Positions 510 through 61,330 of a stretch of DNA of 64,000 nt are shown here, in pieces. A program made the translations under genes and the position numbers. Each line of letters starts with the position of its first letter. The stretch's first letter is position 1. The notes beneath the pieces are model-generated. The model saw only the letters and a program-made list of their open reading frames with translations, searched no databases and had not been told where the DNA came from. The DNA comes from Candidatus Omnitrophota bacterium (GTDB taxonomy: Bacteria; Omnitrophota; Gorgyraeia; JAHJTE01), in assembly GCA_040753675.1 (NCBI GenBank), contig JBFMEB010000006.1, forward strand, positions 4,561-68,560. Reading direction: 5' to 3'.

Positions 510-1016
510 ATGAAGCTGATAAGACAGGATAATCTTTTAAAAATAGCAAAGACTTGGCATATAAAAAGAACCCCAAAATATCGAGCTTTTAAGTGTGCAA
601 ACTGCAGAAGGTTTTTACATCGAGCCTGGCATCACTGGCTTCATAGTGGTGGATTTAGAACTCCGATTCATCTTTGTCAGAAATGCCATAACAATTTGGA
701 CATTACTTATCCGGCTTTAAATCTTTACCCCGTTAGAGAACTACATAAAAAACATAGGAACTTCTCTAACGGGGTTAAGTTAAAAAAGATAAAATTTAGC
801 TTTAAGAAAGAAGTAAGAAAATTTTTAATTAAGATAATTTCTGGTTGGGATATTGCAGAATCGCCACTCTATAAACAATTTACTTGCGATTATTGTAAAA
901 GAATTATTTATAAGACATATCATATATTCTTTAAAGCAAACTCAAAAATTAGCGAAGTGCACCTGTGTAAATATTGCAATCGCCTTATACTATTAAAATC
1001 AAATATCAAAAATTAA
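510..1016 (+). CDS. Hypothetical protein with two tandem CxxC-(22-25)-CxxC zinc-ribbon-like repeats
   Basis: Internal duplication: FKCANCRRF...HLCQKCHN and FTCDYCKRI...HLCKYCNR. It has its own promoter-like sequence. No family recognised. Confidence 0.35.
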   Translation: MKLIRQDNLLKIAKTWHIKRTPKYRAFKCANCRRFLHRAWHHWLHSGGFRTPIHLCQKCHNNLDITYPALNLYPVRELHKKHRNFSNGVKLKKIKFSFKKEVRKFLIKIISGWDIAESPLYKQFTCDYCKRIIYKTYHIFFKANSKISEVHLCKYCNRLILLKSNIKN

Positions 1017-1150
1017 ATATCAAAATGACATATCAAAATTCAAAGTTTTAAAATAAATAATAAAAATGAAAAAAAAGAAATAAAGTAACTTAATTTTGCA
1101 TTTTGCATTGTAATTTTGATTTTTGCATTTTGATTTTTGCATTTTTGAGA
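997..1150. repeat. AT-rich imperfect palindrome of 'caaaat/attttg'-type degenerate repeats. Contains a 45-bp exact inverted copy of 8679-8722
   Basis: Left half is atcaaaa-type units and right half is ttttgcatttt-type units. Positions 1094-1138 are the exact reverse complement of 8679-8722. Confidence 0.8.
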
Positions 1151-2294: not shown

Positions 2295-3167
2295 ATGCAG
2301 ACAAAATCAGCTCAAATAAAAAAAACACTCATCTTGACTCTTTTTTTAAACTGGCTGGTAGCTTTGGCCAAACTTGTTGTAGGAAAACAAATTGCCAGCA
2401 CCAGCATGTTCGCTGACGGAATTCATTCTTTTTCGGATAGTGCATCTAACATCATCGGTCTGGTAGGGATTTGGCTTGCCTATATGCCAAAGGATGAAGA
2501 TCATCCTTACGGCCATAAGAAATTCGAGACATTTGCTTCCTTAGGTATCGTATTATTGCTTATGCTGGGCTGTGTCAACATAATACACGAGAGTATTGAG
2601 CGCTTCAAAAATCCCGTTATCCCACAGGTAAGCATAATCAGCATTGGCGTTATGTTGGCTACCATGATTATAAATTTAATAGTTATGCTCTATGAGCGTA
2701 GGCGCGGGATTGTCCTTAACAGCGACATCTTAAAATCAGACTCTATGCACACCAGTGCCGATATTTTGACTTCGCTTTCGGTGTTGTTTAGCTTTGCCGC
2801 AGTAAAAATGGGTTTTATTATCCTTGACCCAGTAATAGCCTTGATAATTACTATCTTTATTGGCAAAGTTGCAATCGAGATAATATCCGATGCTTCAAAG
2901 GTGCTCTGCGATGCTACTATTATAGATTCCAAGAAGATTGAGCAGCTTTGTTTAACTATTCCCGGAGTAATAAAATGCCACAAGATCAGGACGCGGGGAA
3001 GGCCGGATGATATCTATGTTGATTTGCATATCTTAGTAAATAAGGATACTAAAATTGTAGCAGCTCACAATCTAAGTTCTATAATTGAAAAAAAGATAAA
3101 AAGCGAAATTGTTGGCGTTAGTGATGTAGTTGTCCACATTGAGCCATGTGACGGACACTGTGATTAA
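2295..3167 (+). CDS. Cation diffusion facilitator (CDF) family metal efflux transporter
   Basis: CDF signature HSFSDSASN in TM2, and the HGHKKFE and DSMHTSADILTS motifs typical of CzcD/FieF-type transporters. Confidence 0.85.
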   Translation: MQTKSAQIKKTLILTLFLNWLVALAKLVVGKQIASTSMFADGIHSFSDSASNIIGLVGIWLAYMPKDEDHPYGHKKFETFASLGIVLLLMLGCVNIIHESIERFKNPVIPQVSIISIGVMLATMIINLIVMLYERRRGIVLNSDILKSDSMHTSADILTSLSVLFSFAAVKMGFIILDPVIALIITIFIGKVAIEIISDASKVLCDATIIDSKKIEQLCLTIPGVIKCHKIRTRGRPDDIYVDLHILVNKDTKIVAAHNLSSIIEKKIKSEIVGVSDVVVHIEPCDGHCD

Positions 3168-3206
3168 AGTTTACAGCTAACAGTGTACAGTTTACAGTAA
3201 AGAGTA

Positions 3207-3464
3207 ATGGAAAATTTTGATTTTGAAAATCTAAATGTTTATAAAAAGTCATTGGAATTTATTCATAATATTTTGGAAATTTATAAAAAATTATCCAGAG
3301 AATTCCAGTATTCCATTTCTTTGGATTCAACGAGAGAATGTATTTCTGTTTTTAATGTTCTATATAGAGAATCCTTCATAGATGAAGGAATTTATAGCAA
3401 ATTACGCTTGGAAGCTAGAGAGATTACCAGCATGTTATGCGGTTTGATAGACTCAATTGGTTAA
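3207..3464 (+). CDS. Small, degenerate four-helix-bundle-like protein (23S rRNA IVS protein family, short)
   Basis: The N-terminus LNVYKKSLEFIHNILEIYKKL resembles 26704 (LEVYKISHKLAIEIHKM). It is flanked by inverted 'gtttacag / ctgtaaac' repeats. Weak call. Confidence 0.35.
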   Translation: MENFDFENLNVYKKSLEFIHNILEIYKKLSREFQYSISLDSTRECISVFNVLYRESFIDEGIYSKLRLEAREITSMLCGLIDSIG

Positions 3465-3519
3465 TACTGTTAACTGTTAACAGTAATCTGTAAACTTTTC
3501 CGACAGAATGGAGGAAATA

Positions 3520-8643: not shown

Positions 8644-8672
8644 ACACGGTGCCTTGAATAAATAACGCTTTA

Positions 8673-8775
8673 ATGTAAAAATCAAAATGCAAAAATCAAA
8701 ATTACAATGCAAAATGCAAAATTTTTTAATTTTGATATGTCATTTTAATATTTAATTTTTAATATTTGATATAAA
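8673..8775. repeat. AT-rich imperfect palindrome (caaaat family) at the pilB1-pilC1 junction
   Basis: aaaatcaaaatgcaaaaatcaaaattacaatgcaaaatgcaaaat ... ttttgatatgtcattttaatatttaatttttaatatttgatat. Positions 8679-8722 are an exact inverted copy of 1094-1138. Confidence 0.8.
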
Positions 8776-10040: not shown

Positions 10041-10076
10041 ATAAGTTACGGTGGCGTTAGCAACGTAACTTATTTG
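10041..10076 (+). terminator. Hairpin after pilC1 (ataagttacg...cgtaacttat). Possible terminator or attenuator
   Basis: Perfect 10-bp inverted repeat with a 13-nt loop, followed by tttg. Confidence 0.4.
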
Positions 10077-10080
10077 TCCG

Positions 10081-10265: not shown

Positions 10266-10277
10266 GGAGGTGTTTTT

Positions 10278-10769
10278 ATGCGACGGGTTTTTGGTTTTAC
10301 GTTAATTGAATTACTAATTGTTATTGCAGTTATTGCTATTTTAGTTGGAATTACAGTTCCAAGGTTTTTAGGTATGAGAGATGAGGCAAATTCTGCTAAG
10401 GCATCAGGAGAGACCGCAGCCTTAAAAGCAGCAATTGAGGCATACAGAATACACAGGGGTGTCTTTGCTTATGACGGTGATCCTGATACTTGGCAAAGCC
10501 AGTTGACTGCCATGAGACCGCAGCTTATCGAATCAGTGCTTCCAGATCCATTTACTGCTGCTACCTCGCCAGATAATGAGTATCAACTCGATGTTTCACC
10601 CAATGGAAGGTATTATGTAATTTGGTCAATTGGGCCAGATGCAGAAGCAGATATTAGTGGAATTGACAATAATGGCACTATTCTTACCACCCCCGCTGGC
10701 GGCTGTAATATAACAACCACAACTTGTAATAGAACAGAAGATATTTACGCAACTAATGGAACGCCTTAA
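10278..10769 (+). CDS. Prepilin-type N-terminal cleavage/methylation domain protein (type IV pilin or pseudopilin)
   Basis: MRRVFG|FTLIELLIVIAVIAIL class III signal peptide. Confidence 0.85.
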   Translation: MRRVFGFTLIELLIVIAVIAILVGITVPRFLGMRDEANSAKASGETAALKAAIEAYRIHRGVFAYDGDPDTWQSQLTAMRPQLIESVLPDPFTAATSPDNEYQLDVSPNGRYYVIWSIGPDAEADISGIDNNGTILTTPAGGCNITTTTCNRTEDIYATNGTP

Positions 10770-10786
10770 GTTAGGTAGGATTAAAG

Positions 10787-11152
10787 TTGCGAAAACAGGG
10801 TTTTAGCCTTATAGAATTACTCATAGCCTGCGTTTTGCTTAGTATTGGCTTAGTCGGCTTGATTAATGCATTCTCTATTGGTTTTTCACAAAGTGGTCAA
10901 GCCAAGCAATACGCAGTTGCTAAAAATTTAGCTGAAGAGAAATTGGAAGAGATAAGAAATCTCTCTTATGCTAATGTAAGCCTCGAACCGAGGGCACCTG
11001 TTTTGGGTTTCTCGGATTTTGAGCGCCAAGTTAATGTAGGAGATGCAACGCCTATAGTACCTGGATTAAAACAGGTGCAAATAGACGTATTCTGGCAGGC
11101 AAAAGGAGGAGAAGTAAGCATAAGTTTGTATAGTTATGTGTCGGATATTTAG
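10787..11152 (+). CDS. PilV-like minor pilin (prepilin-type), TTG start
   Basis: MRKQG|FSLIELLIACVLLSIGLVGL matches PilV N-termini. Confidence 0.75.
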   Translation: MRKQGFSLIELLIACVLLSIGLVGLINAFSIGFSQSGQAKQYAVAKNLAEEKLEEIRNLSYANVSLEPRAPVLGFSDFERQVNVGDATPIVPGLKQVQIDVFWQAKGGEVSISLYSYVSDI

Positions 11153-11159
11153 GGTTTTT

Positions 11160-11292
11160 GTTAGATTGATTGGTAACGGTAACGAAGCCGGTATCGGTTA
11201 ACGGCTAAGGTAACGTAAAAACAAAAAGACGAATTCCGTAACCGAATAACGAAACGGGCATCGTAACCCTAACCTATAAACGTTGCCAAAGT
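11160..11292. repeat. 'gtaacg/cgttac' degenerate repeat cluster, palindromic in organisation
   Basis: ggtaacggtaacgaagccggtatcggttaacggctaaggtaacg ... ccgtaaccgaataacgaaacgggcatcgtaaccctaacc. Confidence 0.7.
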
Positions 11293-11304
11293 GGTTTTAA
11301 ATAT

Positions 11305-11826
11305 ATGATTTTTTCTCCTCGTGGTTTAACTTTACTTGAAGTCCTGATAAGTCTAGCCATTATCAGCATATTAATCGTTGCTGTAACTTTTACTGCGCTA
11401 AGCGTATTTCGCTCTTGGCCCACTGAGGCAGGCCATAGCGAAGAGCGGCTTTTAGCAGCAAATGCGCTTGAAAGGATGCTTAGAGAATTTAGAAGCAGCC
11501 TAAGAATAGTGCTTGCTCAAAGTAACCAAATTACATTTTGGTTAGATTCAAATGATAATGGCATTGAAGATACGCTAACGGAAGATGTAAATTTTTCTTG
11601 GTCAGGAGTAGCAGGTGAGAGCCTATACCTAGCTGAAGGAGCAGTAAGTCAAGAAATTTTAAAAAATATAAATAATTTTTCAATTGTCTATTTCGACGAT
11701 AATAATCAGGTTTTAACCACGCCAATAAATTTATCTTTAGTTAGATTATTAGAGATTAATTTATCTAATCAGATTGATGAGGAAGTGGTTAATTTAAGAT
11801 TCAAAGTAAAGTTGAGAAACCTATAA
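11305..11826 (+). CDS. Prepilin-type minor pilin (PilW-like pseudopilin)
   Basis: MIFSPRG|LTLLEVLISLAIISIL N-terminal methylation motif. Confidence 0.6.
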   Translation: MIFSPRGLTLLEVLISLAIISILIVAVTFTALSVFRSWPTEAGHSEERLLAANALERMLREFRSSLRIVLAQSNQITFWLDSNDNGIEDTLTEDVNFSWSGVAGESLYLAEGAVSQEILKNINNFSIVYFDDNNQVLTTPINLSLVRLLEINLSNQIDEEVVNLRFKVKLRNL

Positions 11827-11957
11827 GTAAAATCAAAAATCAAATATAAAAATGCAAAATGACAATGCAAAATTTAAAATTTATAAACTTAAGTTTAAAA
11901 TAATTTTACATTTTAATATGTAATTTTGATATTTAATTTTTGATATTTAATTTTTAT
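11827..11957. repeat. AT-rich imperfect palindrome (caaaat family) centred on taaacttaagttta
   Basis: aaatcaaaaatcaaatataaaaatgcaaaatgacaatgcaaaat ... attttaatatgtaattttgatatttaatttttgatatttaattttt. Confidence 0.8.
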
Positions 11958-13419
11958 GTTGTTTGTTTCTAGAAAGGGTGGCTTTATCCTAATCACCATC
12001 CTGATGTTCTTTGTCTTATTAACTGTCATTGTCGCTGTTTATTTATTCCTCTCCACCATTGAAATGCGCCAAGTGGTAAATAATTTAGATGATGCCAAAG
12101 CCCTTGCTTTAGCTGAAGCAGGAATAGAACGCGGTATAAGGGGAATTAGAGACGATGTGTTAACTACAACGCAGATAGGTATAGCTGATTTAAGAGGTGA
12201 AGATACAGATCTCTCAATAAGCATTGGAACGCGAGATAATATGCGCTATATAGATAGTGCAGTTGCGACAATAAATGCCAATACTGACCAAGCCATTTTA
12301 AGGAGATTTGACTCAAATTATACAAATACCAGAATAAATTCTATAGAATTACATGCTAGAGCAGCTAGGAGTGGCACTGGAACCAATCCTACTATGCAGG
12401 TTTCTTATACTGTTGACGGTGTTAATTATACGACAGCAATAACCCAGTTGCTCACCAGCACCACCTTAACTGATTTTTCTGCGAATATCACTGGCACGCT
12501 TAGTTGGCAAACAATTATGAGTGCGAATTTCCGGCTTCGGACTATGCGTACGGCAGGCACCCGGACTATTAATCTTGACTCTATGTATTTAAGAGTAACT
12601 TATGAAATAGATACAAATACTGAAAGTTGGGCAACAGGAGGTTTTGCTACTTTTCCTATTAACCTAGGCGACGGCACAATAGAATCTATAAACATTACTG
12701 CTGAGCAAGGAAAGGTGCATTTAAATACTGCTTCACAGCCGTTATTAAGATATCTGATGTTTGAGAGAGGCGTGCCAGGTGCTACTGCAAATACTTTGGC
12801 TAGAAGAATAGTTAACTATCGTGCTTCGAAATTTTTTGATTCAGTAGAGGAGTTAAAGCAAATTAACGGCATGACTCAAGTCTATTATGACTTGATAAAA
12901 GACTATGTCAGTGTGTATTCATTCATAAATACCTATGCAACACGGCTAACTGGTAATCGCGCTCCGATAAATATCAATACTGCCTCACGTGAAGTCTTAG
13001 AAGCTATTTTTGATCCATTGAATTTGGCTGCCAGCGATCCTGCTAGTCTTGCTACGGACATAATTAATACCAGAGCCAGCAATCCTTTTACTTGCTTTTA
13101 TTCTTCTGATTCTGCAATAACTACTGATTTTTATGACTTTATAATTAATCGTGCCTATCTAACTGCTGCCCAGCGAAATCGCGTTCTCGACAATGCTGAT
13201 GCCTCGCAATTAGTACCTGTTTCTGGCTATGCTGGTTTTAACGCAGCAACAACAGAGTTTTCATATGATACGAATAGTTTTTTGATAGATGCCGTGGGTA
13301 AAAAATCCGATTCAAGTCGTCGGGTAAAAACTATAATTAAAGACGACGGCAATAAATATTTAGATACATTTATTGGCGATACAACATTGACAAAATACTG
13401 GAGAGAGATTGCACAATAA
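11956..13419 (+). CDS. GspK/PilX-like large minor pseudopilin with tandem helix-hairpin-helix motifs
   Basis: PilX_N-like N-terminus (GGFILITILMFFVLLTVIVAVYLFLSTIEMRQ..ALALAEAGIERG). Two HhH units (LNTASQPLL...; INTASREVLEAIF) as in GspK. Confidence 0.6.
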   Translation: MLFVSRKGGFILITILMFFVLLTVIVAVYLFLSTIEMRQVVNNLDDAKALALAEAGIERGIRGIRDDVLTTTQIGIADLRGEDTDLSISIGTRDNMRYIDSAVATINANTDQAILRRFDSNYTNTRINSIELHARAARSGTGTNPTMQVSYTVDGVNYTTAITQLLTSTTLTDFSANITGTLSWQTIMSANFRLRTMRTAGTRTINLDSMYLRVTYEIDTNTESWATGGFATFPINLGDGTIESINITAEQGKVHLNTASQPLLRYLMFERGVPGATANTLARRIVNYRASKFFDSVEELKQINGMTQVYYDLIKDYVSVYSFINTYATRLTGNRAPININTASREVLEAIFDPLNLAASDPASLATDIINTRASNPFTCFYSSDSAITTDFYDFIINRAYLTAAQRNRVLDNADASQLVPVSGYAGFNAATTEFSYDTNSFLIDAVGKKSDSSRRVKTIIKDDGNKYLDTFIGDTTLTKYWREIAQ

Positions 13420-13460
13420 AGTTGATACACGGATAAACATATTCTGGGAATACTAAACAA

Positions 13461-13567
13461 AAGTCAAAAGTTGTCATACAATTGTCATACTATTGTCATA
13501 TATTGTCTATTTACAATGTATGACCATATTTGACTATTTATGACTACGTATGACTTATTACTGTCTG
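13461..13567. repeat. 'tgtcata/tatgaca' palindromic repeat element, copy A
   Basis: aagtcaaaagttgtcatacaattgtcatactattgtcata...atgtatgaccatatttgactatttatgactacgtatgacttattactgtctg. Near-identical to 39470-39572. Confidence 0.85.
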
Positions 13568-13577
13568 TTTTCTCTAA

Positions 13578-15209
13578 TTGGATAATATTATGACCGATAA
13601 CGAATTGCAACTTAATTTGACACCAAATACTATTTATACTCGCGAGCAGGCAGTCAGCGCTGAAGCAGTAATTGGAATTGATATTGGTTATCGAGATATA
13701 AAAATTGCTGAACTTAGGCGAAAAAGGACAAATGACGAATGGCAGGTGGAAAGCTGCGAAATATTAGATTTTTCTCAAAGCAAAAGCGAAGATGAAAATA
13801 AAGTAAAGATAAACATTTTAAAAAAATTTTTTGAAGACAAAAATATTAAAAAGGCAAAAGTTGCCTGCCTTATTAATGATGCAAATGTTTTAAATAAAAG
13901 AATACTTACGCCTCTATTAAGCGACTCAGAGCTTAAAGAGGCGATTCACTACAAGACAAAGGAATACATTAATTTTCCTCTTTCAGAGGCTTCTATTGAT
14001 TTTAAGATAATAGGCAAAGTAGAAGTTGAGAATGAAACAAAAGATGAAATTCTGGTAGTAGCCTGTCCACAAAAGGCAATTAACGATTACTTATCTTTAT
14101 TTAAAGAACTCAGAATATTACCCACCTCCTTTGTCAGTTTAGCTGTTGCTATCGAACATAACCTTTCCACTGTAAACCCTAAAGATAACGAGACAGTGGC
14201 TTTTGTTGATTTGGGAGCTACGCATACAGAACTTCAAATTTTTAAAGAAAGGAAGTTTAAATTTGGCCGCAAATTGCCTGTTATCGCTAATGCAATAACA
14301 AAGGCATTAACCACAGTGCTTCAAGGCGTCACAGGAAAGATTGCCCTAACATTTGAGGAAGCAGAGATTATAAAAAAAGAATGCGGCCTGCCGCAAGCCA
14401 GTAATGAAACTGTTTGTTCTAAAACAATAACTGCTAACCAGGTGTTGTCGCTAATTCGACCTGAGATAGAAAAACTGGTAAGTGAGATTGAACACTCTTT
14501 TTATTATTATCGGGAAGAATTTCAGGCAGGAAAGGTTGACCGCCTAATTCTCTTAGGCGCAGGTGCAAATCTTAAGAATCTAGCTCAATTTTTGGCTAAA
14601 GAATTAGGCATTGGCGTTGAGGTAGCTGAAAACGCTACTTTCTTCGCATCCATAGGAGTTGCAAGAAGTATTATAGAGCAACTTAAGACGAGGCAAAAAG
14701 AAATAAATTTGCTGCCCAAAGAGATTAAAGAACAAAATCAACTTTTGATTAGAAGATTAACCTTTGAGGTAATTATTACAGTATTTATTCTCACTTACAT
14801 TTTGTTCTTGCTGGGACTTAAGGTTGCCACTATCGGAATGCATAAGCGGCTGGAGGCCATCAAAGCTCAAATTTACAGCCTGCGCTATAAGCAACAAGAG
14901 GCATATATGAAAGGAATAATCAGCCAGGTTTATAGCCGGGAACCGCTCTGGCACGATTGTTTTGTTGAACTTAGCAATATAATCGGTGAAAATGTATATC
15001 TGACACGCCTGTCTCACCTTAAAGATGAGTTGACCTTGGAAGGCGTTGTTGTTTCTAAGACAGATACAACTGAAAGCATTCTTTCTGATCTTATGTTAAA
15101 GTTAGAAAAAGGCATATTTAAGAATGTGAGTCTCATCGAAAGCAAAACACAGAAGGACGACACAAAACCCAATGTGGGTGAATTTATAATAAAATGCCAA
15201 ATAGAATAA
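13578..15209 (+). CDS. pilM: PilM (actin-like ATPase) fused to a PilN-like TM/periplasmic segment. TTG start at 13578; alternative ATG at 13590
   Basis: N-terminal IGIDIGYRDIKIAEL actin-fold phosphate loop. ~350-aa PilM body, then a TM helix (LTFEVIITVFILTYILFLLGL) and a ~150-aa PilN-like tail. Confidence 0.75.
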   Translation: MDNIMTDNELQLNLTPNTIYTREQAVSAEAVIGIDIGYRDIKIAELRRKRTNDEWQVESCEILDFSQSKSEDENKVKINILKKFFEDKNIKKAKVACLINDANVLNKRILTPLLSDSELKEAIHYKTKEYINFPLSEASIDFKIIGKVEVENETKDEILVVACPQKAINDYLSLFKELRILPTSFVSLAVAIEHNLSTVNPKDNETVAFVDLGATHTELQIFKERKFKFGRKLPVIANAITKALTTVLQGVTGKIALTFEEAEIIKKECGLPQASNETVCSKTITANQVLSLIRPEIEKLVSEIEHSFYYYREEFQAGKVDRLILLGAGANLKNLAQFLAKELGIGVEVAENATFFASIGVARSIIEQLKTRQKEINLLPKEIKEQNQLLIRRLTFEVIITVFILTYILFLLGLKVATIGMHKRLEAIKAQIYSLRYKQQEAYMKGIISQVYSREPLWHDCFVELSNIIGENVYLTRLSHLKDELTLEGVVVSKTDTTESILSDLMLKLEKGIFKNVSLIESKTQKDDTKPNVGEFIIKCQIE

Positions 15210-15739
15210 AATCTGTGCCAAGCAAGTTAGATTTAAAGACCCTCTTTGCCAAGAATAGGTTTATTTTTCTTCTTGCCTTATCAGTCCTCATTTTCATCAT
15301 ATCAATTATTTATATATGCGTTCCCCTTTTGAAAAACCTAAACGCTGTTAGTAAGCTCTATAGAAGAGAGCAGTTAGAGTTTGACCGGATTCAAAAAGAA
15401 GCCTCGCTTTTAGATAATGTAAAAGCAAAAAATTTTACTGATAGTGAGCATATTCCAGCTGCCTTGGAAGAATTAACCAGAAAGGCAAATGAGTTAGGGA
15501 TTAAATTCGATGCGGTAAAACAGAGAGGTTTAGTATTCCTCGACGGCAATTATAAAATTTTACCCCTCTCTATAGAATCAACCTGTGATTTTCAGGCATT
15601 GGGTAATTTTCTAGGCAATCTGGAAAATTTAAAGGAAAGTGTTACGGTTGTTGACAAATTAGAAATTACCAGAGAAAAAGAAATCTTGCCTAATTTAAAG
15701 GTTGTTTTAGAGTTAGGTATGTATATTATATCTTATTAA
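15194..15739 (+). CDS. PilO-like inner-membrane pilus alignment protein
   Basis: Single N-terminal TM, coiled coil, ~180 aa. Overlaps the pilM/N stop. Confidence 0.55.
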   Translation: MPNRIKSVPSKLDLKTLFAKNRFIFLLALSVLIFIISIIYICVPLLKNLNAVSKLYRREQLEFDRIQKEASLLDNVKAKNFTDSEHIPAALEELTRKANELGIKFDAVKQRGLVFLDGNYKILPLSIESTCDFQALGNFLGNLENLKESVTVVDKLEITREKEILPNLKVVLELGMYIISY

Positions 15740-15741
15740 TT

Positions 15742-16185
15742 ATGAAAAATGCTCGCCTTATAATCTTATTAGTCTTAATAATAATCATGGTTTTTGTCTG
15801 GTCAACTTCTTTTAAAAAAATCAAGCGGCCAAGAATCATGGCTAAAGGTTCAGTGGCTCTTGAGCCTGAGAAGGATGTTAAAAGTTTTGTTTTTTGGCAG
15901 GATAGGATGGTTAAAGGGAGGAAGGTAAGTGCTTTTAAGCAATGGGGAAGAAATCCCTTTGCCTTAACCCAAGGGATGATTGCCGAGTCAAGCTTTCGTC
16001 TTTTGGGCATATTATGGGACATCAAAATTCCTCAGGCAATTATTAACGATACTGTAGTTGGCGTCGGCGATGTTATCGATGGTTACAATGTTGTTGGGAT
16101 TGAAAAGAATAAAGTGATATTAAATAATGGCACTAACACCTTAGAGTTAATCTTGTGGGAAGAGAAAGATGAAGGACAGAAATGA
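15742..16185 (+). CDS. PilP-like small protein
   Basis: N-terminal TM. C-terminal beta segment (VGVGDVIDGYNVVGIEKNKVILNNGTNTLEL) resembles the PilP/GspC-like domain. Position fits the operon. Confidence 0.4.
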   Translation: MKNARLIILLVLIIIMVFVWSTSFKKIKRPRIMAKGSVALEPEKDVKSFVFWQDRMVKGRKVSAFKQWGRNPFALTQGMIAESSFRLLGILWDIKIPQAIINDTVVGVGDVIDGYNVVGIEKNKVILNNGTNTLELILWEEKDEGQK

Positions 16186-16190
16186 TTAAA

Positions 16191-16283
16191 CGCAGATGAT
16201 CGCTGACAAATGAACAGATGATCACTGATTTTTAATTTTTATCTGTGTTCATCTGTCGCTTTTCAATCTGTGTTCATCTGTGT
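16191..16283. repeat. 'cagatga/catctgt' palindromic repeat element
   Basis: cgcagatgatcgctgacaaatgaacagatgatcactga ... atctgtgttcatctgtcgcttttcaatctgtgttcatctgtgtaca. The motif acgcagatgatcactgatg recurs at 39439-39460. Confidence 0.75.
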
Positions 16284-16297
16284 ACAAGGAGATTTTA

Positions 16298-18001
16298 ATG
16301 ACAGAAGAACGGAAAAATTTAGAGAAAATACTTTTAGAAGATAAACTCATTTCTCCAGAGAGGTTAAATCTTGCAAAAGAGGAAGCAAAAAAGAATGCAG
16401 TCTCTTTAGAGAAGATATTGATTAAGCAGGGAGTGGTAAATAATGAACAGATAGCTACGATTATTGCTGGTGAAATGGGTATACCTTTTATTGATGTATC
16501 GGATTATGCTATTGATAAAGAGGTTTTGAAGCTTATCCCCAAAGATTTGGCGAGCAAATATACCCTTATCCCGCTGTTTAAAGTCGGCAGCAGCCTGACC
16601 ATAGCTATGGCAGATCCCTCGGATATAGTTGCCATAGATGAGGTTCATTTAAAAAGTAAATGTGATATTGATGCAGTCTTAGGAATTGCCGGCGCGATTA
16701 CTAATGCCATTGATACTTATTACGGGGTTAAGGGCGATATAGAGCATATTGTCGAAGATATTAGCGAGGAAGATGTTAATAAAATGGTAGAGAAACTTAA
16801 AGAGTCGCAAGATACCAAAGATTCTTCTCAGTTAGCCGAGGAGGCGCCATTAATCCGCCTAGTGAATCTTTTGATTGTTCAGGCCGTAAAAGAAAGGGCA
16901 TCTGATATTCATATTGAGCCGGATGATAAACAATTGAGGGTGCGTTTCCGCATTGATGGCGTTCTTTATGAGAGACCTTCACCGCCTCAATTTTTGACAA
17001 ACGGAATTATATCTCGTGTAAAGATTCTTTCCAAAATGGATATTGCTGAAAAAAGAAAGCCGCAGGACGGAGGATTCGGTATTAAGGTCGGTAAAAAAGA
17101 TATAGATTTAAGAGTCTCAACTTATCCGACAATTTATGGCGAAAATGTGGTGATGAGACTTTTGGATAAAAGTAGCCTATTAATGGGCTTGGAAGATTTA
17201 GGGCTTTCTGACCAGGCCCTTAAAACCTTTAGCGAAATGATTCGCATGCCTTATGGCATAATTCTGGTAACTGGGCCGACAGGAAGCGGTAAAACCACTA
17301 CATTATACGCAACTTTACAGACAATAAATACTGTTTCAAAAAACATAATCACCTTGGAGGATCCAGTTGAATATAGGTTACCTCTAATAAGGCAGGCACA
17401 GGTTAACCCTAAAGCAGGCCTTACCTTTGCCTCTGGCTTAAGGTCAATATTAAGACAGGACCCCAATGTTATCATGGTTGGCGAAATCCGAGATTTAGAG
17501 ACAGTGGAGATTGCTGTGCATGCTGCTTTGACTGGCCAGTTGGTTTTCAGCACCTTGCATACCAACGATGCTCCTGGAGCAATAACCAGAATGATAGATA
17601 TGGGCGTAGAGCCATTTTTAATTGCCTCATCAGTTATTGGTGTAGTAGCCCAGCGGCTTGTTAGAGTATTATGCCCTGACTGTAAAGAAGCCTATAAACC
17701 TTCAGAGCAATTATTATCTAGTTTAGGTTTAGCGCCGGGTAAGGATTATAAGTTTTTTAAGGCACGTAGTTGTCGGCATTGTTATCAGATGGGCTATAAA
17801 GGCAGAATTGGAATCTATGAAGTTATGGTTATGAACGAAGCTCTTAGGAAACTTGCAATCAGTAAGGCATCCAGCGATGAAGTTATGCGCGAGGCGAGAA
17901 AATCAGGACTCGTAAGTTTGAGAGAAGACGGATTGCTTAAGGCGATAAATGGTATAACATCTATCGAAGAGGTTCTAAGAGTAACGCAGATGGAAGTGTG
18001 A
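16298..18001 (+). CDS. pilB: Second PilB/GspE/MshE-family assembly ATPase. ATG 16298, with AAGGAG 6 nt upstream
   Basis: GPTGSGKTTT Walker A. CPDCKEAY...CRHCYQMGY tetracysteine. MshEN-like N-terminal repeats (LEKILLEDKLISPERLNLA; SLEKILIKQGVVNNEQI). Confidence 0.9.
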   Translation: MTEERKNLEKILLEDKLISPERLNLAKEEAKKNAVSLEKILIKQGVVNNEQIATIIAGEMGIPFIDVSDYAIDKEVLKLIPKDLASKYTLIPLFKVGSSLTIAMADPSDIVAIDEVHLKSKCDIDAVLGIAGAITNAIDTYYGVKGDIEHIVEDISEEDVNKMVEKLKESQDTKDSSQLAEEAPLIRLVNLLIVQAVKERASDIHIEPDDKQLRVRFRIDGVLYERPSPPQFLTNGIISRVKILSKMDIAEKRKPQDGGFGIKVGKKDIDLRVSTYPTIYGENVVMRLLDKSSLLMGLEDLGLSDQALKTFSEMIRMPYGIILVTGPTGSGKTTTLYATLQTINTVSKNIITLEDPVEYRLPLIRQAQVNPKAGLTFASGLRSILRQDPNVIMVGEIRDLETVEIAVHAALTGQLVFSTLHTNDAPGAITRMIDMGVEPFLIASSVIGVVAQRLVRVLCPDCKEAYKPSEQLLSSLGLAPGKDYKFFKARSCRHCYQMGYKGRIGIYEVMVMNEALRKLAISKASSDEVMREARKSGLVSLREDGLLKAINGITSIEEVLRVTQMEV

Positions 18002-18040
18002 TATAAAGATAAATTTAAATATCAAAAATCAAATATCAAA

Positions 18041-18421
18041 ATGGCAATACAAAATTCAAAATCTGATGACTTTAAAGAGAAATTTAAACAAAGACTATAT
18101 GATTTTGTATTAAAGCTTATCAATTTTTTAGATAGTTTAGCTAAAGATAATGTTTCAAGAAGAATTAGTGACCAATTGTTAAGGAGCGGAACAAGTATTC
18201 TTGGGAATTATATTGAAGGTAAATCAGCAAGCAGTAAAAAAGAGTTTACTAATTTTTTTAATACTTCCTTGAAGTCGGCTAATGAAAGCAAATTATGGCT
18301 TACATTATTGCGTGATGCTAAACGAGCTAATACTGAAGAAGTAACTTGGTTTCTGAAAGAACTCGATGAGATTTCTAATATTTTTGCATCAAGCATTTTG
18401 ACACTTAAAGGTAAAAAGTAA
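18041..18421 (+). CDS. Four-helix-bundle protein (TIGR02436 / '23S rRNA intervening sequence protein' family)
   Basis: DQLLRSGTSILGNYIEGKSASSKKEFTNFFNTSLKSANESKLWLTLL matches the family core. The gene sits between pilB2 and pilC2 inside a caaaat/attttg palindrome (18002-18040 and 18422-18482). Confidence 0.75.
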   Translation: MAIQNSKSDDFKEKFKQRLYDFVLKLINFLDSLAKDNVSRRISDQLLRSGTSILGNYIEGKSASSKKEFTNFFNTSLKSANESKLWLTLLRDAKRANTEEVTWFLKELDEISNIFASSILTLKGKK

Positions 18422-18482
18422 TTTTTAATTTTAATATGTAATTTTGATTTTTGCAGTTTGATTTTTGAATTAGTTTTATATT

Positions 18483-19694
18483 ATGCCAAATTTCAGATAT
18501 AAGGTAAGAGACAGGGTGGGTAAACCTATTCTCGGCGTTATCGGAGCTAAGAATACAGAAATGCTCATTGAGTATTTTAAAAGTATGGGCTATACGCCGA
18601 TAACTGTCAGAGAACAGAGAGGCATAGGTATTTTAGAGTTCAGAAGGAAATTAAAAAAAATTACTTTAAAAGATATAAATATGATGACTCGCCAACTGGC
18701 TACTTTTGAAGGCGCGGGTATGCCGATACTTTCTGGGCTTAAAGCATTAGAGGATCAGACAGAGAATTGGCGGCTAAAAGAGATAGTGACAAAGATAAAG
18801 AAAGACGTGGAGGCAGGCAGCGAACTATCTGATGCCTTAGAACAGTTTCCAAATGTATTTTCAAATTTATATGTTAATATGGCCCGGGCTGGTGAGACAG
18901 CAGGAAAGCTTCATGAGATACTACTGCGGCTTGCAGAATTAGGCGAGAGGGATGCCAATACCCAAGCCCAGATAAAATCAGCTACACGTTATCCCTTGAT
19001 TGTAATTATTGTCATTTGTGCTGTTTTTTTAGGCATAACTACTTTTATCCTGCCAAAATTTGCCAATCTTTTTGAGAGATTTAATACAGAATTGCCTTTG
19101 CCTACTCGAGTGATGCTAGGAATTAATACAGCATTCCATAGATACTGGTATATCCTTTTGATTGCAGTTATTGCTGTTATAGTCGGGTTTCGGTTTTTTG
19201 TAAGAAGCAAAGGAGGACGCAAGATTTGGGATGCCTTTGTATTAAATATGCCCATTTTTGGCAAACTAATTCAAGATGTAATTATGGCTAGGTTTTCTCG
19301 CATTATGGGCACGCTTCTTCAAAGTGGCCTGCCAGTCTTAAAAGCCCTGGATATAACCAGTGGCGTCCTTGATAATGTTATTGTAGCCAAGGCATTAGAT
19401 GATGTTAAAGATAATGTTAGAGAGGGAAGAGGTATGTCGCAGCCACTTGCTTTACATAAGGTTTTTCCGCCGATGGTAGTGCATATGGTTGCAGCAGGTG
19501 AAGAAAGCGGAGCGCTTGATTCTCTACTGGTTAAGATTGCTGAGCATTTTGATGCTGAGGTGGAAAGTGCAATAAAAAATTTGACTACCTTGATTGAACC
19601 AATACTTATATTTATTTTGGGTATTATCGTCCTTGGGTTAGCCTTGGCGATATTCTTGCCAATGTGGAATATGTCCAGATTGTTCTTGAAATAA
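18483..19694 (+). CDS. pilC: Second PilC/GspF platform protein
   Basis: Two T2SSF repeats, three TMs. Confidence 0.9.
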   Translation: MPNFRYKVRDRVGKPILGVIGAKNTEMLIEYFKSMGYTPITVREQRGIGILEFRRKLKKITLKDINMMTRQLATFEGAGMPILSGLKALEDQTENWRLKEIVTKIKKDVEAGSELSDALEQFPNVFSNLYVNMARAGETAGKLHEILLRLAELGERDANTQAQIKSATRYPLIVIIVICAVFLGITTFILPKFANLFERFNTELPLPTRVMLGINTAFHRYWYILLIAVIAVIVGFRFFVRSKGGRKIWDAFVLNMPIFGKLIQDVIMARFSRIMGTLLQSGLPVLKALDITSGVLDNVIVAKALDDVKDNVREGRGMSQPLALHKVFPPMVVHMVAAGEESGALDSLLVKIAEHFDAEVESAIKNLTTLIEPILIFILGIIVLGLALAIFLPMWNMSRLFLK

Positions 19695-19718
19695 AACTGC
19701 AAACTGCAGAAAAGTTCT

Positions 19719-19754
19719 TGACAATTATATATGTAAATGTTATTTTAATTAAAG
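19719..19754 (+). promoter_or_regulatory. Candidate promoter (TTGACA-17-TATTTT) upstream of pilin 19779
   Basis: Perfect -35 read directly. The -10 is weak. Confidence 0.3.
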
Positions 19755-19778
19755 ATAAACTTTGGGGGGAGGTGAGGT

Positions 19779-20162
19779 ATGTTGAAGAGATTAAGAGGTT
19801 TTACGTTAATCGAATTAGTTATTGTTTTAGCAATATTAGCAATATTAGCCGCTGTGGCAATTCCCAGATTCGTGGACTTATCTAAGAAGGCAAGAAGAGC
19901 AACTGCTGAGTCAGAATTAGGTTCTTTGCGCGCCGCAGCACAACTTTATTATGCTTCTGTGGCCCTGAGCGGAAACCCAAGCTTTCCTACTAGTGAAGCA
20001 GCGTTAAGAGCCAGGCTCGACCAAGATATAACGCAATTGGATACAAATACTACTGCAAGAAGCTTTGACTGGGTTTACTATGGAACCGGAACTTCTGCTG
20101 GTAGAGTAGCTAAGACAGGCCCATATACTGCTGGAGGTGCAGGCGCAGGCTGGAACTGGTAG
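19779..20162 (+). CDS. Type IV pilin (prepilin-type), likely the major subunit of module 2
   Basis: MLKRLRG|FTLIELVIVLAILAILAAVAIPRF. 127 aa. Confidence 0.85.
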   Translation: MLKRLRGFTLIELVIVLAILAILAAVAIPRFVDLSKKARRATAESELGSLRAAAQLYYASVALSGNPSFPTSEAALRARLDQDITQLDTNTTARSFDWVYYGTGTSAGRVAKTGPYTAGGAGAGWNW

Positions 20163-24559: not shown

Positions 24560-26605
24560 ATGAGAGATTTTTTTAAGATCTTAAAAGAGTTAAAAGATTA
24601 TGAAGACTATTTAGCAGTGATAGTTTTTTTTATTTTTGTTTTTTTAATCTATTTTAAGAGTTTAGCTACTCCATTTGTATTTGATGACATCCATATGATT
24701 CTACGCAACAGTTATATAAAAGAACTTAAAAATCTGCATTTGCCATTTATTCGCGGCCGTGTGACAAACGTACCCTTAGAGAAAGGAATGTATCGGCCAC
24801 TATTAATGGCGAGTTTTGCCTTTAATTATCTTTTTGGCAGATTAAATCCAATTGGCTATCACATTATTAATATGATGTTTCATTTCTTAAATGCCTCGTT
24901 ATTATTTCTTTTATTTAAGCAGTTATTAAAAAAAGGCTCTTTTTGGCCAGCATTTATTGCTAGTTTATTATTCTTGCTCCATCCTGTAAACAGCGAAGCA
25001 GTAATTTATATATCATGTCGTTCAACCTTAATGGCTTCTTTTTTTCTTTTGTTAGGCCTGCTTTCTTATGCAAAATGGGAAGGACAGAAATTTGATAAAA
25101 AATATTATCTTAGTTTAATTAGTTTTGCCTGCGGTCTTTTTACTAAAGAAGTTATGATTATCTTTCCTTTGATGTTAATGAGTTACGATTTTCTCTTTAG
25201 AAAAGACTCAAAGCGCACTTTTACTGCTTTTATCAAAAGTCATTTCTTGTTCTTATTTATTGCCATATCTTATCTTTTATTAAGGCATAACTTAATCGGC
25301 GCCTTTACTAATTTAAGTTTGAAACGCAGTATTTATGAGAATTTCCTTACGAATTTACATGCCGGTGTTTATTATTTTAAATTATTCTTTTATCCTGTCA
25401 ATCTATGTATAGGTAGATATTTTCCTACCAGTAAATCTTTTTTTGAGCCGCAGATTTTGCAGTCAGCTGGAATTGTAGTTACCCTTGCAGTAATTGCTAT
25501 GGCGGTCTCCATTCGTTACCCAGTAGTTACTTTTGGAATATTTTGGTTTTTTTTAAATTTAGTGCCAAAGTTTATTGCCTCTTTAGCTTTATTAGCAGCC
25601 GAACACCATCTCTATCTGCCGGCAATGGGCATAGTTATGGTTATAGCCTTTGTCTTAAAGAAGATTAATGAGGTTTTGCAAGAGAGAAAATATAAATTGA
25701 TAAAAATGATGGTAGTGATATTGATTTTGAGCTTATTGTCTATTAGTGCAATACTTAGCTATCAGCGAAATGTTGTCTGGAATGACGAAACTGCTTTATG
25801 GCTTAATAATATTAAACATTCTCCTTTAGCCTGGGGGGCTTATAACAATCTTGGCTTACTCGCCTTAGGCAAAGGTAGATATGAAGAGGCGCATCAATAT
25901 TTTATTAAAGCCTTGGCAGGCCTGGAGCGTCTCGCCTCACCAGGCATGGAGATAGATTTGCATACTAACTTAGGAAGACTTTATTTGGAAACTGGAAAAT
26001 TAGATTTAGCCCAAGAAGAATTTTTTAAAGTGCTTGCTCTTAATCCTTTTGTTGCCGAGGCTCATAATAATTTGGGATTGGTCTATGCGAGGAAAGGCCT
26101 GCAAGAAAAAGAGAAAGAAGAGTTTAAATTAGCAATGGAATTAGACCCTTCTCTCGTAGAGGCATATAGCAACTTGGCAATTTCTTATTTCCGAGCGAAG
26201 GACTATCAACAGGCAATAGAACTCTCAAATAAGGCAATTAAGTTAAACCCAGATTACTCTAAACCTTATCTAGTTTTGTCAAAAATTTATGAAGAATTGA
26301 AAGATTTTAATCAATCGATCATTTTTAAGAAAATGGCAATGAATTTAATGCCAACCGATGCACAAGATTATTACGAGTTGGGGCTGCTCTATGGCAAGAT
26401 TGATAATACAAAAGCCATTGAAGCCTTTAAAGAAGCTATTAAATTGAATCCAGAATTTGCTGGTGCGCATAACAACTTGGCAGTAATTTATGCTAATTTA
26501 GAACCTCCCCAGCTTGAGCTTGCCAGGAAACACGCTCAATTTGCTTTGAAATACGGATATAAGGTTAAGCCTCAAGTATTGAGGCAGCTGGGGATTGAGC
26601 CATGA
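24560..26605 (+). CDS. Membrane protein with an N-terminal GT-C/PMT_2-like polytopic domain and C-terminal TPR repeats
   Basis: Multiple TMs up to ~aa 400, then at least 5 TPR units (AWGAYNNLGLLALGKGRYEEAHQYF..., AEAHNNLGLVYARKG..., AGAHNNLAVIYANL...). Confidence 0.65.
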   Translation: MRDFFKILKELKDYEDYLAVIVFFIFVFLIYFKSLATPFVFDDIHMILRNSYIKELKNLHLPFIRGRVTNVPLEKGMYRPLLMASFAFNYLFGRLNPIGYHIINMMFHFLNASLLFLLFKQLLKKGSFWPAFIASLLFLLHPVNSEAVIYISCRSTLMASFFLLLGLLSYAKWEGQKFDKKYYLSLISFACGLFTKEVMIIFPLMLMSYDFLFRKDSKRTFTAFIKSHFLFLFIAISYLLLRHNLIGAFTNLSLKRSIYENFLTNLHAGVYYFKLFFYPVNLCIGRYFPTSKSFFEPQILQSAGIVVTLAVIAMAVSIRYPVVTFGIFWFFLNLVPKFIASLALLAAEHHLYLPAMGIVMVIAFVLKKINEVLQERKYKLIKMMVVILILSLLSISAILSYQRNVVWNDETALWLNNIKHSPLAWGAYNNLGLLALGKGRYEEAHQYFIKALAGLERLASPGMEIDLHTNLGRLYLETGKLDLAQEEFFKVLALNPFVAEAHNNLGLVYARKGLQEKEKEEFKLAMELDPSLVEAYSNLAISYFRAKDYQQAIELSNKAIKLNPDYSKPYLVLSKIYEELKDFNQSIIFKKMAMNLMPTDAQDYYELGLLYGKIDNTKAIEAFKEAIKLNPEFAGAHNNLAVIYANLEPPQLELARKHAQFALKYGYKVKPQVLRQLGIEP

Positions 26606-26673
26606 GTTATGGGTTATGTGCTATGGGTTATGAGCCATGTGCTAGGAGTTATGCGCTTTGTGTTATGAGTTAA
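26596..26673. repeat. Tandem degenerate 14-bp repeat, ~5.5 units of g[ag]g[ct][ct]atg[tg]g[ct]tat
   Basis: gagccatgagttat gggttatgtgctat gggttatgagccat gtgctaggagttat gcgctttgtgttat gagtta. Confidence 0.8.
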
Positions 26674-26703
26674 AATTATACTAATGTATAAGAAAGGAGA
26701 AAT

Positions 26704-27075
26704 ATGCAGAGTTATAAAGATTTAGAAGTATATAAAATTTCGCATAAGTTAGCAATCGAAATTCATAAAATGACATTGGAATTACCTTATTTTGAAATGT
26801 ATGAGGAAGGCAGTCAAATAAGAAAATCTGCTAAAGCGATTCCAGCAAATATTGTTGAGGGATTTGGAAGGAAGAAATATCAGCAAGATTACTTGCGTTT
26901 TGTTATTATTGCTCATGCTTCCTGTAATGAGACAATAGAACATTTAGAAATTTTATTTGAAACAGGTTCTTTAAAAGATAGGGATAAATTCAATTATTTT
27001 CTAAAACAATATGATATCCTTGGCAGAAAACTTAATAAATTTATCCAAGCAATCGAAAAACAGCTGGAAATCTAA
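26704..27075 (+). CDS. Four-helix-bundle protein (23S rRNA IVS protein family), canonical member
   Basis: YKDLEVYKISHKLAIEIHKMT...IRKSAKAIPANIVEGFGRKKYQQDYLRFVIIAHASCNETIEHL is the classic family pattern. Confidence 0.85.
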   Translation: MQSYKDLEVYKISHKLAIEIHKMTLELPYFEMYEEGSQIRKSAKAIPANIVEGFGRKKYQQDYLRFVIIAHASCNETIEHLEILFETGSLKDRDKFNYFLKQYDILGRKLNKFIQAIEKQLEI

Positions 27076-27116
27076 ACACAAAGCCCAAAGCTCACGACAC
27101 ATTAGCCCAATATCCC

Positions 27117-61149: not shown

Positions 61150-61330
61150 ATAGAAAGAATTCTTAAATTCCAATATACAATTACCAAATTCCAAACAATT
61201 TTACAATATCAAAATTACAATGACCAAAATAGAAAATCCTTAAGCTTTTTGTCTAGAATATTGGAATTTGGAATTTGTTTGTGATTTGTAATTTGGAATT
61301 TGTGATTTTGAGCTTTTCTTGCTACTCGTT
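61150..61330. repeat. 'caaattcc / ggaatttg' imperfect palindromic repeat element. Full element with both arms
   Basis: aaattccaatatacaattaccaaattccaaa...atcaaaattacaatgaccaaaa...ttggaatttggaatttgtttgtgatttgtaatttggaatttgtgattttgag. Confidence 0.8.

Follow-up and report, generated by a model that had tools for sequence, protein, structure and literature searches.

The window analysed here is a stretch of 64,000 nt of a Candidatus Omnitrophota genome (contig JBFMEB010000006.1, positions 4,561 to 68,560 of the forward strand), with a GC content of ~37% and about 60 genes, all on the + strand. At the centre of this study is the spacer between pilB2 and pilC2, the second of two pilB-pilC gene pairs of the window, which contains an open reading frame (ORF) for a small four-helix-bundle protein enclosed by two arrays of degenerate heptamers in inverted orientation. 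The host genes and the parts of this cassette, which we name after the start of its ORF at position 18041, are the following.

16280..18001, + strand: pilB2, upstream host gene, type IV pilus / type II secretion system (T2SS)-E assembly ATPase (TIGR02538, E = 2.5e-197; PF00437)
18012..18062, + strand: left arm of the 18041 cassette, degenerate heptamers AATTTAA ATATCAA AAATCAA ATATCAA AATGGCA ATACAAA ATTCAAA (period 7 in Tandem Repeats Finder, TRF), terminus AATTYAAAWATC
18041..18421, + strand: four-helix-bundle ORF (23S rRNA intervening sequence-protein / Avd-like), 126 aa, pI 9.6 (TIGR02436, 82.4 bits; PF05635, 68.3 bits)
18421..18473, + strand: right arm of the 18041 cassette, inverse heptamers …TATGTAA TTTTGAT TTTTGCA GTTTGAT TTTTGAA TT, end GATTTTTGAATT
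18483..19694, + strand: pilC2, downstream host gene, platform protein GspF/PilC (TIGR02120, E = 1.9e-112; PF00482)

The two arms constitute an inverted repeat of 51 nt (18012-18062 / 18421-18471) with 75% complementarity. The left arm holds the ATG and approximately the first 7 codons of the ORF, and the right arm stops 10 nt ahead of the pilC2 start codon. A genome-collection scan returned 7 loci. Scanning with PilC2 identified L023, a syntenic orthologous pilB-pilC locus whose PilB, PilC and PilO are 78%, 74% and 53% identical to their counterparts in the window. There, the stop codon of pilB and the start codon of pilC are separated by 12 nt, compared to a pilB2-pilC2 spacer of 481 nt in the window. 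The two closest relatives of the 18041 ORF (86% and 83% amino acid identity) are not situated at pilB-pilC junctions; one has a glycosyltransferase gene on either side, the other a glycosyltransferase gene on one side and a gene of unknown function on the opposite side. A three-way DNA alignment with loci L125 and L126, arms included, showed 85% identity, and the homology extended from ~18012 to ~18473, exactly the positions at which the inverted repeat terminates on either side (AATTYAAAWATC … GATTTTTGAATT). Since the spacer of L023 measures 12 nt, relatives occupy unrelated sites and the homology is bounded by the inverted-repeat termini, the 18041 cassette represents an insertion whose ends are defined. 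From these sequence comparisons we conclude that the pilB2-pilC2 spacer holds a discrete mobile cassette of ~460 bp (~18012-18473), inserted into a former 12-nt spacer.

At E ≤ 1e-5, 3304 homologs of the 18041 protein were detected. An exact-match look-up of this protein gave no record; the identical sequence did turn up in the homology search. The best 120 of these are 74-88% identical and carry the labels Omnitrophota, Gribaldobacteria, Planctomycetes, WOR-3, Parcubacteria, Gammaproteobacteria and Saccharibacteria; most of the compared loci are metagenome assemblies, and taxonomic labels are used as given by their records. The gene context differs at every examined locus from those groups (for example between hpf and secA, between an ABC permease and an SDR gene, or between MbhDE and MnhB), and AAAATCA-type arms are kept at all examined 18041-type loci, even within GC-rich hosts. 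On one GC-rich contig (L090, 150-385), pilB and pilC are separated by a truncated AAAATCA-type cassette that has kept the AT-rich left arm and ~50 codons and lost the 3’ half, a copy acquired horizontally and now decaying at a junction of the same kind. Further decayed copies were found at L019 and L022 and, within the window, at position 3207. In a WOR-3 metagenome-assembled genome (DFBT01000110.1; L018, 1900-3900), two cassettes of different subfamilies reside in a single Mbh/Mrp-type operon, and further short inserts are nested in both arms of the first of them, including a 37-nt GC-rich palindrome in its right arm. Four viral contigs matching a 20-nt motif of the arms were rejected as candidate vectors: they belong to AT-rich genomes, match by chance within coding sequence and carry no four-helix-bundle gene.

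Two more cassettes of this kind are present in the window.

3166..3498, + strand: second cassette, decayed; arms 3166-3199 (ACAGNNN heptamers) and 3465-3498 around a shortened ORF; between a cation diffusion facilitator (CDF) transporter gene and rpmA (L27)
3207-3464, + strand: shortened four-helix-bundle ORF, 85 aa, pI 4.9 (TIGR02436, 31 bits; PF05635, 32.0 bits, just under the cut-off)
26596..27102, + strand: third cassette; left array 26596-26672 (11 TGRGNTA-type heptamers), ORF, and short right arm 27076-27102 (ACACAAA GCCCAAA GCTCACG ACACAT)
26704-27075, + strand: four-helix-bundle ORF, 123 aa, pI 7.8 (TIGR02436, 96.5 bits; PF05635, 94.3 bits)

A preliminary description of this DNA, made from the sequence, had assigned all three ORFs to the four-helix-bundle family and ranked them as canonical (26704), clear (18041) and degenerate and short (3207). 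The profile search bore out both the assignment and the ranking, with cut-offs of 24 bits for TIGR02436 and a gathering score of 33.8 bits for PF05635. As the profiles match the 3207 ORF in its N- and C-terminal parts only, we regard it as a shortened copy that lacks an internal stretch. In sequence searches against solved structures, the 18041 protein matched PDB 2RLD (E = 1e-12, 5 chains) and the 26704 protein matched 2GSC / XCC0516 (E = 9e-10, 5 chains). By sequence, both proteins thus fit four-helix-bundle proteins of ~110-130 aa related to solved pentameric structures. The dN/dS ratio of the 18041-type ORF is 0.05-0.23 with saturated synonymous sites, indicating that this ORF is under purifying selection. 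PADLOC and PHROGs gave no hits for the cassettes. The third cassette is flanked by genes for a TPR protein and a GAF-histidine kinase-GGDEF protein, and its ORF has its own GGAG ribosome-binding site.

The repeat unit is a heptamer in the arrays of all three window cassettes. Besides the repeat described above, the inverted repeats are 3166-3199 / 3465-3498 (34 nt, 82% complementary) for the 3207 cassette and 26637-26671 / 27068-27102 (35 nt, 71% complementary) for the 26704 cassette. To score such flanks, the region upstream of each of 58 window genes was aligned to the reverse complement of its downstream region and compared with 300 shuffles; local alignment scores were used for this purpose, RNAduplex energies of the upstream and downstream regions having been dropped as non-discriminating because any AT-rich pair gives long weak duplexes. 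The 18041 and 3207 genes rank first and second of the 58 (z ~10, 0/300 shuffles). The arms of the 26704 cassette are persuasive only by way of its relatives L107, L108, L111 and L113, which have the same layout and covarying arms. With this qualification for 26704, the earlier proposal that inverted arrays of short repeats bracket each of the three genes was correct, heptamer arms being found at all of them. Short direct tandem arrays with no obvious inverted partner occur at other gene junctions, at 3786-3808 (GTAGTTT, 3.3 copies), 16241-16283 (ATCTGTGTTC, 3.8 copies) and 19694-19708 (AAACTGC, 2.1 copies), and may be solitary arm remnants.

The layout recurs far beyond the window. Whether four-helix-bundle genes elsewhere carry inverted flanks had been put forward as a check in the preliminary description, and this is the case for 25 of 27 elements from at least nine phylum-level groups (z > 4), with 7 as the best period in 22 of the 27. 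Judged by flank complementarity, 22 of 23 four-helix-bundle genes lay above the 95th percentile, and 16 above the 99th, of 372 control genes at their loci (p = 3e-15). One outlying ‘control’ gene turned out to be a PF05635 gene that had escaped detection before; its flanks had singled it out blind. Of 48 neighbouring genes, 47 share the orientation of the ORF. The median distance from the upstream stop codon to the beginning of the left arm is 1 nt across elements, and that from the end of the right arm to the downstream start codon is 17 nt.

Different protein subfamilies carry different, self-complementary heptamers. The relatives of the 26704 cassette have RTGGGNT-type heptamers upstream and their reverse complement downstream, in sequences that vary between elements and are complementary within each; of these, L107 belongs to a pseudopilin operon, L108 has a giant gene on either side, L111 separates pilC/T2SSF from a pseudopilin gene, and L113 is placed between two FGE-sulfatase genes. 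At another pilC junction, a distant family member (L041) is enclosed by inverted arrays of 9-mers. The layout was likewise found, with a different heptamer in each case (z 6 to 22), at all six plasmid loci that stem from organisms in culture (Nostoc punctiforme, N. flagelliforme, Treponema saccharophilum, Bernardetia, Chlorohelix and Planktothrix). Homologs of Xanthomonas XCC0516, the protein of the solved structure 2GSC, are encoded between accB and accC, with arms composed of GGGAATC GGGAGTG GAGAATC GGGAATC and the inverse (30 nt, 87% complementary). GC-rich arms with the same layout comprise those of Xanthomonas (GGGAATC), Nostoc (GGAGGTC), Treponema (CCGCTCT) and L041.

Several loci of this set show additional peculiarities. 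The cassette of L108 (1900-2850), whose giant neighbours encode 8477 and 6362 aa, is enclosed by an outer GC-rich inverted repeat of ~50 nt (tgctattctcg…gggcaggtgcg…), which suggests nested palindromic elements. Two plasmid cassettes, L124 (Planktothrix agardhii plasmid p1) and L123 (Chlorohelix plasmid), are placed inside defence loci, one having DISARM drmD and BREX pglX as neighbours and the other genes for a helicase-related protein and an N-6 DNA methylase. In gene predictions, the start of the four-helix-bundle ORF falls within the left arm (MRHALGVEKIY…), and the downstream gene is likewise extended into the right arm (L111, 2001-2405; L113, 2375 versus 2510 in L114). At L127 (1945-2001), residues 1-10 of XCC0516 are encoded by the heptamer array GTGGAGAATCGGGAATCGG….

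In addition to the cassettes with an ORF, the window contains palindromes of the same sequence type without one.

991..1145, + strand: ORF-less copy, AAAATCA type; retains ATATCAAAATGACATATCAAAATTCAAAG, the start-codon region of the 18041-type ORF
6949-8643, + strand: pilB1
8672..8772, + strand: ORF-less copy at the pilB1-pilC1 junction; AAAATCA / TGATTTT palindrome in which the 5’ end of the cassette (ATG-containing heptamer) is joined to the 3’ end
8806-10032, + strand: pilC1
11829..11955, + strand: ORF-less copy flanked by genes for a pseudopilin and a T2SSK-like protein; 5’ codons (ATGACAATGCAAAAT…) and stop codon with 3’ arm (…AAAATAA-TTTTACATTTTAATATGTAATTTTGAT) still present
61201..61308, + strand: probable ORF-less copy; AAATTAC / GAATTTG heptamers, contains ACAATGACCAAAA (TRF, fold)

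The first three palindromes were halved, and each half was aligned to full cassettes and compared with a shuffled null. Scores of the halves ranged from 67 to 89 against null maxima of 36 to 58. Left halves match 5’ ends of cassettes including the ATG and about the first 10 codons (e.g. ATGACAATGCAAAAT…) and right halves match 3’ ends, the stop-codon region being included in the right half of the 11829-11955 copy only. At the pilB1-pilC1 junction, the left half matches L016 (score 67, null maximum 38) and the right half is identical to the 3’ flank of L001 at 48 of 53 positions (score 86, null maximum 36); for the 11829-11955 copy, 54 of 61 positions of the right half are identical to the 3’ end of L001, a Gribaldobacteria element (score 89, null maximum 40). 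The right halves of these two copies are thus 89-91% identical to the L001 3’ flank, far beyond shuffles. Moreover, the 20-nt arm motif occurs 9 times in the window, where 0.1 occurrences are expected. Long stems are predicted at 995-1144 and 11826-11958, and the 991-1145 copy appears as a 150-nt hairpin in both the minimum free energy (MFE) and the centroid structure. These matches support the view that the ORF-less palindromes are miniature derivatives without the ORF interior, similar to MITEs (miniature transposable elements with inverted repeats).

The preliminary description had noted a caaaat-type palindrome without an ORF between pilB1 and pilC1 and had taken such palindromes for decayed versions of the element. 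The former is the copy at 8672-8772, and the latter agrees with the matches of both halves to cassette ends beyond shuffles. Its heading, which placed two of the genes at pilB-pilC junctions, held for the 18041 gene at pilB2-pilC2; the pilB1-pilC1 junction has the ORF-less copy and no gene. The two gene pairs are old paralogues, because PilB1 and PilC1 are only 53% and 32% identical to the L023 homologues of PilB2 and PilC2, values that also mark L023 clearly as the counterpart of the pilB2-pilC2 pair and not of pilB1-pilC1. Both belong to a single co-directional pilus/T2SS-like super-operon (4843-20162) that further includes at least 4 N-methyl (pseudo)pilin genes, a T2SSK-like gene, a PilM-PilN fusion and PilO. 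Among 80 PilC-anchored loci we found two further pilB-pilC junctions with cassettes and two with ORF-less palindromes. An enrichment at pilB-pilC junctions or in pilus operons is suggestive and is not claimed, as it is confounded by the PilC-based retrieval and by the many pilus operons in Omnitrophota. By eye, the probable copy at 61201-61308 resembles the ORF-less palindromes at the pilB-pilC junctions of two unrelated metagenome contigs (L065, 1790-2050; L046, 2270-2480). Two near-identical hairpins of ~95 nt at 13462-13562, between the T2SSK-like gene and pilMN, and at 39470-39570, between PEPCK and serA-like genes, are built from tandem 10-11-nt units (TTGTCATAC… / …GTATGAC; MFE ~-31 kcal/mol, z ~-5). 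They are a separate dispersed palindromic repeat family with no ORF.

At the level of RNA, both the MFE and the centroid prediction contain the terminal stem for each of the three cassettes of the window. The predicted stem of the 18041 cassette spans the region from the pilB2 stop codon to the pilC2 AUG, both of which come to lie at the stem base, and the fold of the 3207 cassette has a z score of -4.06. RNAalifold applied to 8 relatives recovered the stem with 89.9% of positions paired and compensatory changes in 9 of 20 pairs; none of 500 shuffles matched this result, and slid controls reached 35-58%. No promoter-like or terminator-like sites were found on the plus strand in 17800-18700, and an Rfam scan of the window gave no rRNA and no hit.

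A closely similar organisation has been described for the intervening sequences (IVSs) of 23S rRNA. In Coxiella, the IVS has a 28-bp terminal stem that is cut by RNase III, a PF05635 S23p ORF and tandem GACAGAT heptamers upstream of it, and cleavage removes the Shine-Dalgarno (SD) sequence (PMC4990558). Like the IVSs of Coxiella burnetii and Leptospira, which are ~430-760 nt long, located in helix 25 or 45 and excised by RNase III, the cassettes have complementary termini enclosing a PF05635 ‘S23p’ ORF; the ORF start and SD region are placed in or near the stem, and the ORF has decayed in some copies (PMC4990558). The tandem heptamers directly upstream of the Coxiella ORF have their counterpart in the ACAGNNN units of the 3207 cassette. 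In contrast to the rRNA IVSs, the cassettes sit in intercistronic spacers of protein operons and so do not share the rRNA location by which IVSs are recognised. Their arms, putative counterparts of the IVS stems, are longer arrays of less perfect complementarity, and genomes contain many copies together with ORF-less derivatives. The proposal in the preliminary description that these elements are IVS-like insertions is sustained by the 12-nt spacer of L023, by the relatives at other sites and by the shared layout of the Coxiella 23S IVS. We conclude that the cassette is the same kind of element as the ORF-bearing 23S rRNA IVSs, located in intercistronic operon spacers instead of rRNA helices.

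The interpretation to which we incline, and which we hold to be somewhat probable, is that of a promoterless mobile four-helix-bundle cassette that is read through, with arms that pair in the mRNA and are likely to be an RNase III substrate. The cassette would be transcribed by read-through within the pilB2-pilC2 mRNA, and its arms would pair as an imperfect duplex of ~45-50 bp from which the ORF is looped out. Looping out would leave no more than a few nucleotides between the pilB2 stop and the pilC2 start and thus restore a short effective spacer, and we propose that insertions are tolerated in tightly coupled pairs such as pilB-pilC and accB-accC for this reason. By analogy with the rRNA IVSs, the duplex is a likely RNase III substrate, and cleavage would free the four-helix-bundle mRNA and part the flanking cistrons. 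The modelled stem geometry, which brings the pilB2 stop next to the pilC2 start, would fit a preserved coupling of pilB2 and pilC2 equally well as their uncoupling, which the preliminary description had put forward as a possible result of excision or cleavage.

A number of observations weigh against this interpretation. A need for read-through is not the only possible cause of the strict co-orientation, which might instead stem from insertions favouring one replication strand, all genes of the window being on one strand. The whole-element fold of 18041 has a modest z score of -2.06, the arms are only 71-87% complementary with the AAAATCA type being AU-rich, and the pilB1-pilC1 copy forms a weak RNA hairpin that is no better than shuffles (z 0.05). 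The flanks of 26704 rank only fifth of 58 (z 2.7, 11/300 shuffles), which is not significant alone, and 26704 taken alone and L011 are the 2 of 27 elements without a significant inverted repeat. As regards mobility, no direct repeat was seen outside the termini at three insertion sites or in comparison with the empty L023 site, the ends being of low complexity and the empty site diverged. The only ORF of the full cassette is the PF05635 gene, with no transposase encoded; nor was a transposase gene present in or beside ~30 loci, whose neighbours are housekeeping and operon genes. A tblastn search against phage genomes for carriage by phages gave no match.

Several of these observations would be expected if the inverted heptamer arrays were purely DNA-level terminal repeats, serving as sites for a transposase or recombinase acting in trans or as single-stranded DNA hairpins like those of IS200/IS605 and REP/RAYT, with an incidental RNA stem, an unprocessed mRNA and the gene as mere cargo. 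The covariation of the arms fits such repeats equally well, and sense-strand G.U pairs are not in excess among the arm mismatches (15 G.U versus 23 A.C, p = 0.26), which are mostly transversions. Discrete ends with no visible target-site duplication, the existence of MITE-like ORF-less copies and an orientation that a replication-strand effect could explain point in the same direction. Against this stand the lack of a transposase gene in or next to the ~30 loci and the strong conservation of a cargo protein that is always of the same family; no Y1 (HUH) transposase was found among the annotated neighbours of the cassettes, whole genomes not having been searched for one. Furthermore, the arms abut the stop and start codons of the neighbouring genes and the homologous stems of rRNA IVSs are cut by RNase III, which indicates a role at the RNA level, so that we regard the explanation by DNA alone as possible and yet improbable. 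Rather unlikely in our estimate is that the arrays are iterated RNA or DNA binding sites of the pentameric four-helix-bundle protein, which would autoregulate its translation or act in mobility or maintenance of the element, with one heptamer for each subfamily. Each subfamily does have its own heptamer (AAAATCA, RTGGGNT, ACAGNNN, GGGAATC, AATTCGT and others), but simple co-inheritance predicts the same match. The 18041 protein is basic (pI 9.6), under purifying selection and homologous to Avd, which works with nucleic acid and reverse transcriptase (PMC10053308), and its ORF start is embedded in the array; on the other hand, the pI is 7.8 for the 26704 type and 4.9 for the decayed 3207 protein, and ORF-less copies persist with no protein encoded in cis.

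We also considered that the elements are domesticated intercistronic regulators in the manner of REP/BIME or Correia (nemis) hairpins, setting the stability or processing of operon segments and tuning the pilB:pilC ratio, with mobility being ancient. Several hairpins indeed punctuate the pilus super-operon between 4.8 and 20 kb (at pilB1-pilC1, pseudopilin-T2SSK, T2SSK-PilMN and pilB2-pilC2), and insertions recur in other pilus/T2SS operons (L041, L090, L046, L065, L107 and L111). This recurrence is confounded, as most of such loci were retrieved with the PilC query; moreover, the orthologous junction is empty in the nearest relative (L023), the closest relatives of the cassette occupy unrelated sites, and copies have decayed (3207, L019, L022, L090). 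Domestication is for these reasons an account to which we assign little probability. Finally, the flank complementarity might be a chance by-product of low-complexity AT-rich intergenic DNA. AAAATCA-type arms are A/T-rich, some hairpins fold no better than shuffles, and shuffled flanks reach ~75% identity in gapped global alignment. Concordantly, gapped global flank identity between full elements is not above that of composition-matched shuffles, a further point to the disadvantage of our interpretation; a claim of greater conservation of flanks than of synonymous sites was discarded, since shuffled flanks align equally well. Nevertheless, local-alignment scores far above shuffles and the 372 control genes, GC-rich examples with the same layout and the blind recovery of an unrecognised PF05635 gene from its flanks effectively refute an origin by chance.

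The ORF-less copies resemble MITEs such as Correia/nemis, ERIC, REP/BIME and REPIN in being multi-copy, intergenic sequences of 100-155 bp with terminal inverted repeats, situated within operons. Three of them, and probably a fourth, share both ends of a longer element without its interior. They differ from MITEs in that the full-length parent encodes a four-helix-bundle protein and not a transposase or RAYT, that the arms are tandem heptamers and not unique terminal repeats, and that no target-site duplication was seen at the low-complexity ends of the cassette. According to work attributed to De Gregorio et al., the Correia/nemis hairpins of Neisseria are reportedly RNase III substrates.

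The arrays also resemble the cyanobacterial STRR sequences, the GGGAATC repeats of Xanthomonas (PMC4692102) and the TAACTGA repeats of Beggiatoaceae (PMC4679880) in their period of 7 and in being intergenic, mostly between co-oriented genes and near the upstream ORF. The Xanthomonas ‘G-quadruplex’ (G4) repeats form 70-75 convergent (inverted) pairs per genome (Rehm et al. 2015, PMC4692102), and the arms of the X. campestris cassette between accB and accC are exactly these published repeats. Likewise, the cassettes of Nostoc and Planktothrix are flanked by STRR-like heptamers. The published accounts treat the arrays as simple sequence repeats or G4 motifs and report no link to mobile elements or PF05635 (PMC4692102, PMC4679880). 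We came across no report that associates PF05635 genes with heptamer arrays at their flanks outside rRNA, or with STRR or GGGAATC repeats, among literature that included few papers from subscription journals, so that an earlier description is possible. With Avd of the diversity-generating retroelements (DGRs) the proteins share a homologous pentameric four-helix-bundle fold and family, small size and basic character (PMC10053308). Inverted heptamer arms are not a DGR feature, and no reverse transcriptase, template repeat or variable repeat was present beside the examined cassettes, a result that covers neighbours and not all 60 window proteins.

Altogether, the layout is the one known from the 23S rRNA IVSs, but here it is located between protein genes, comes with ORF-less miniatures and is spread over many bacterial phyla. 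A far-reaching extension, which we offer tentatively and would not expect to hold as a whole, is that PF05635 genes are the signature cargo, and possibly a mobility or maintenance factor, of widespread unrecognised transposase-less cassettes in rRNA helices and mRNA spacers; their ORF-less derivatives would explain much of the intergenic excess of heptamers (STRRs, the inverted GGGAATC pairs of Xanthomonas and the palindromes of the window), and movement would perhaps use the hairpin RNA after its excision, a reverse transcriptase being recruited by the Avd-like protein. That most intergenic heptamer repeats derive from four-helix-bundle cassettes is an extrapolation. It offers a testable origin for these repeats, STRR and GGGAATC included, and the accB-XCC0516-accC locus of Xanthomonas is a tractable place to study such cassettes, in a cultured organism and with the protein structure solved. 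For genome annotation, the arrays are a source of spurious N-terminal extensions of four-helix-bundle ORFs and of downstream genes (L111, L113), and a genomic context becomes available for PF05635, in which thousands of ‘four helix bundle protein’ genes are unannotated. For operon biology, the cassettes show that insertions of ~0.4-0.5 kb are tolerated within the tightly coupled pairs pilB-pilC and accB-accC. The origin and function of rRNA IVSs and their ‘S23p’ ORFs have remained unexplained for more than 30 years; if the same element inhabits operon spacers across phyla, moves and leaves miniatures, the IVSs would be one niche of a general mobile element.

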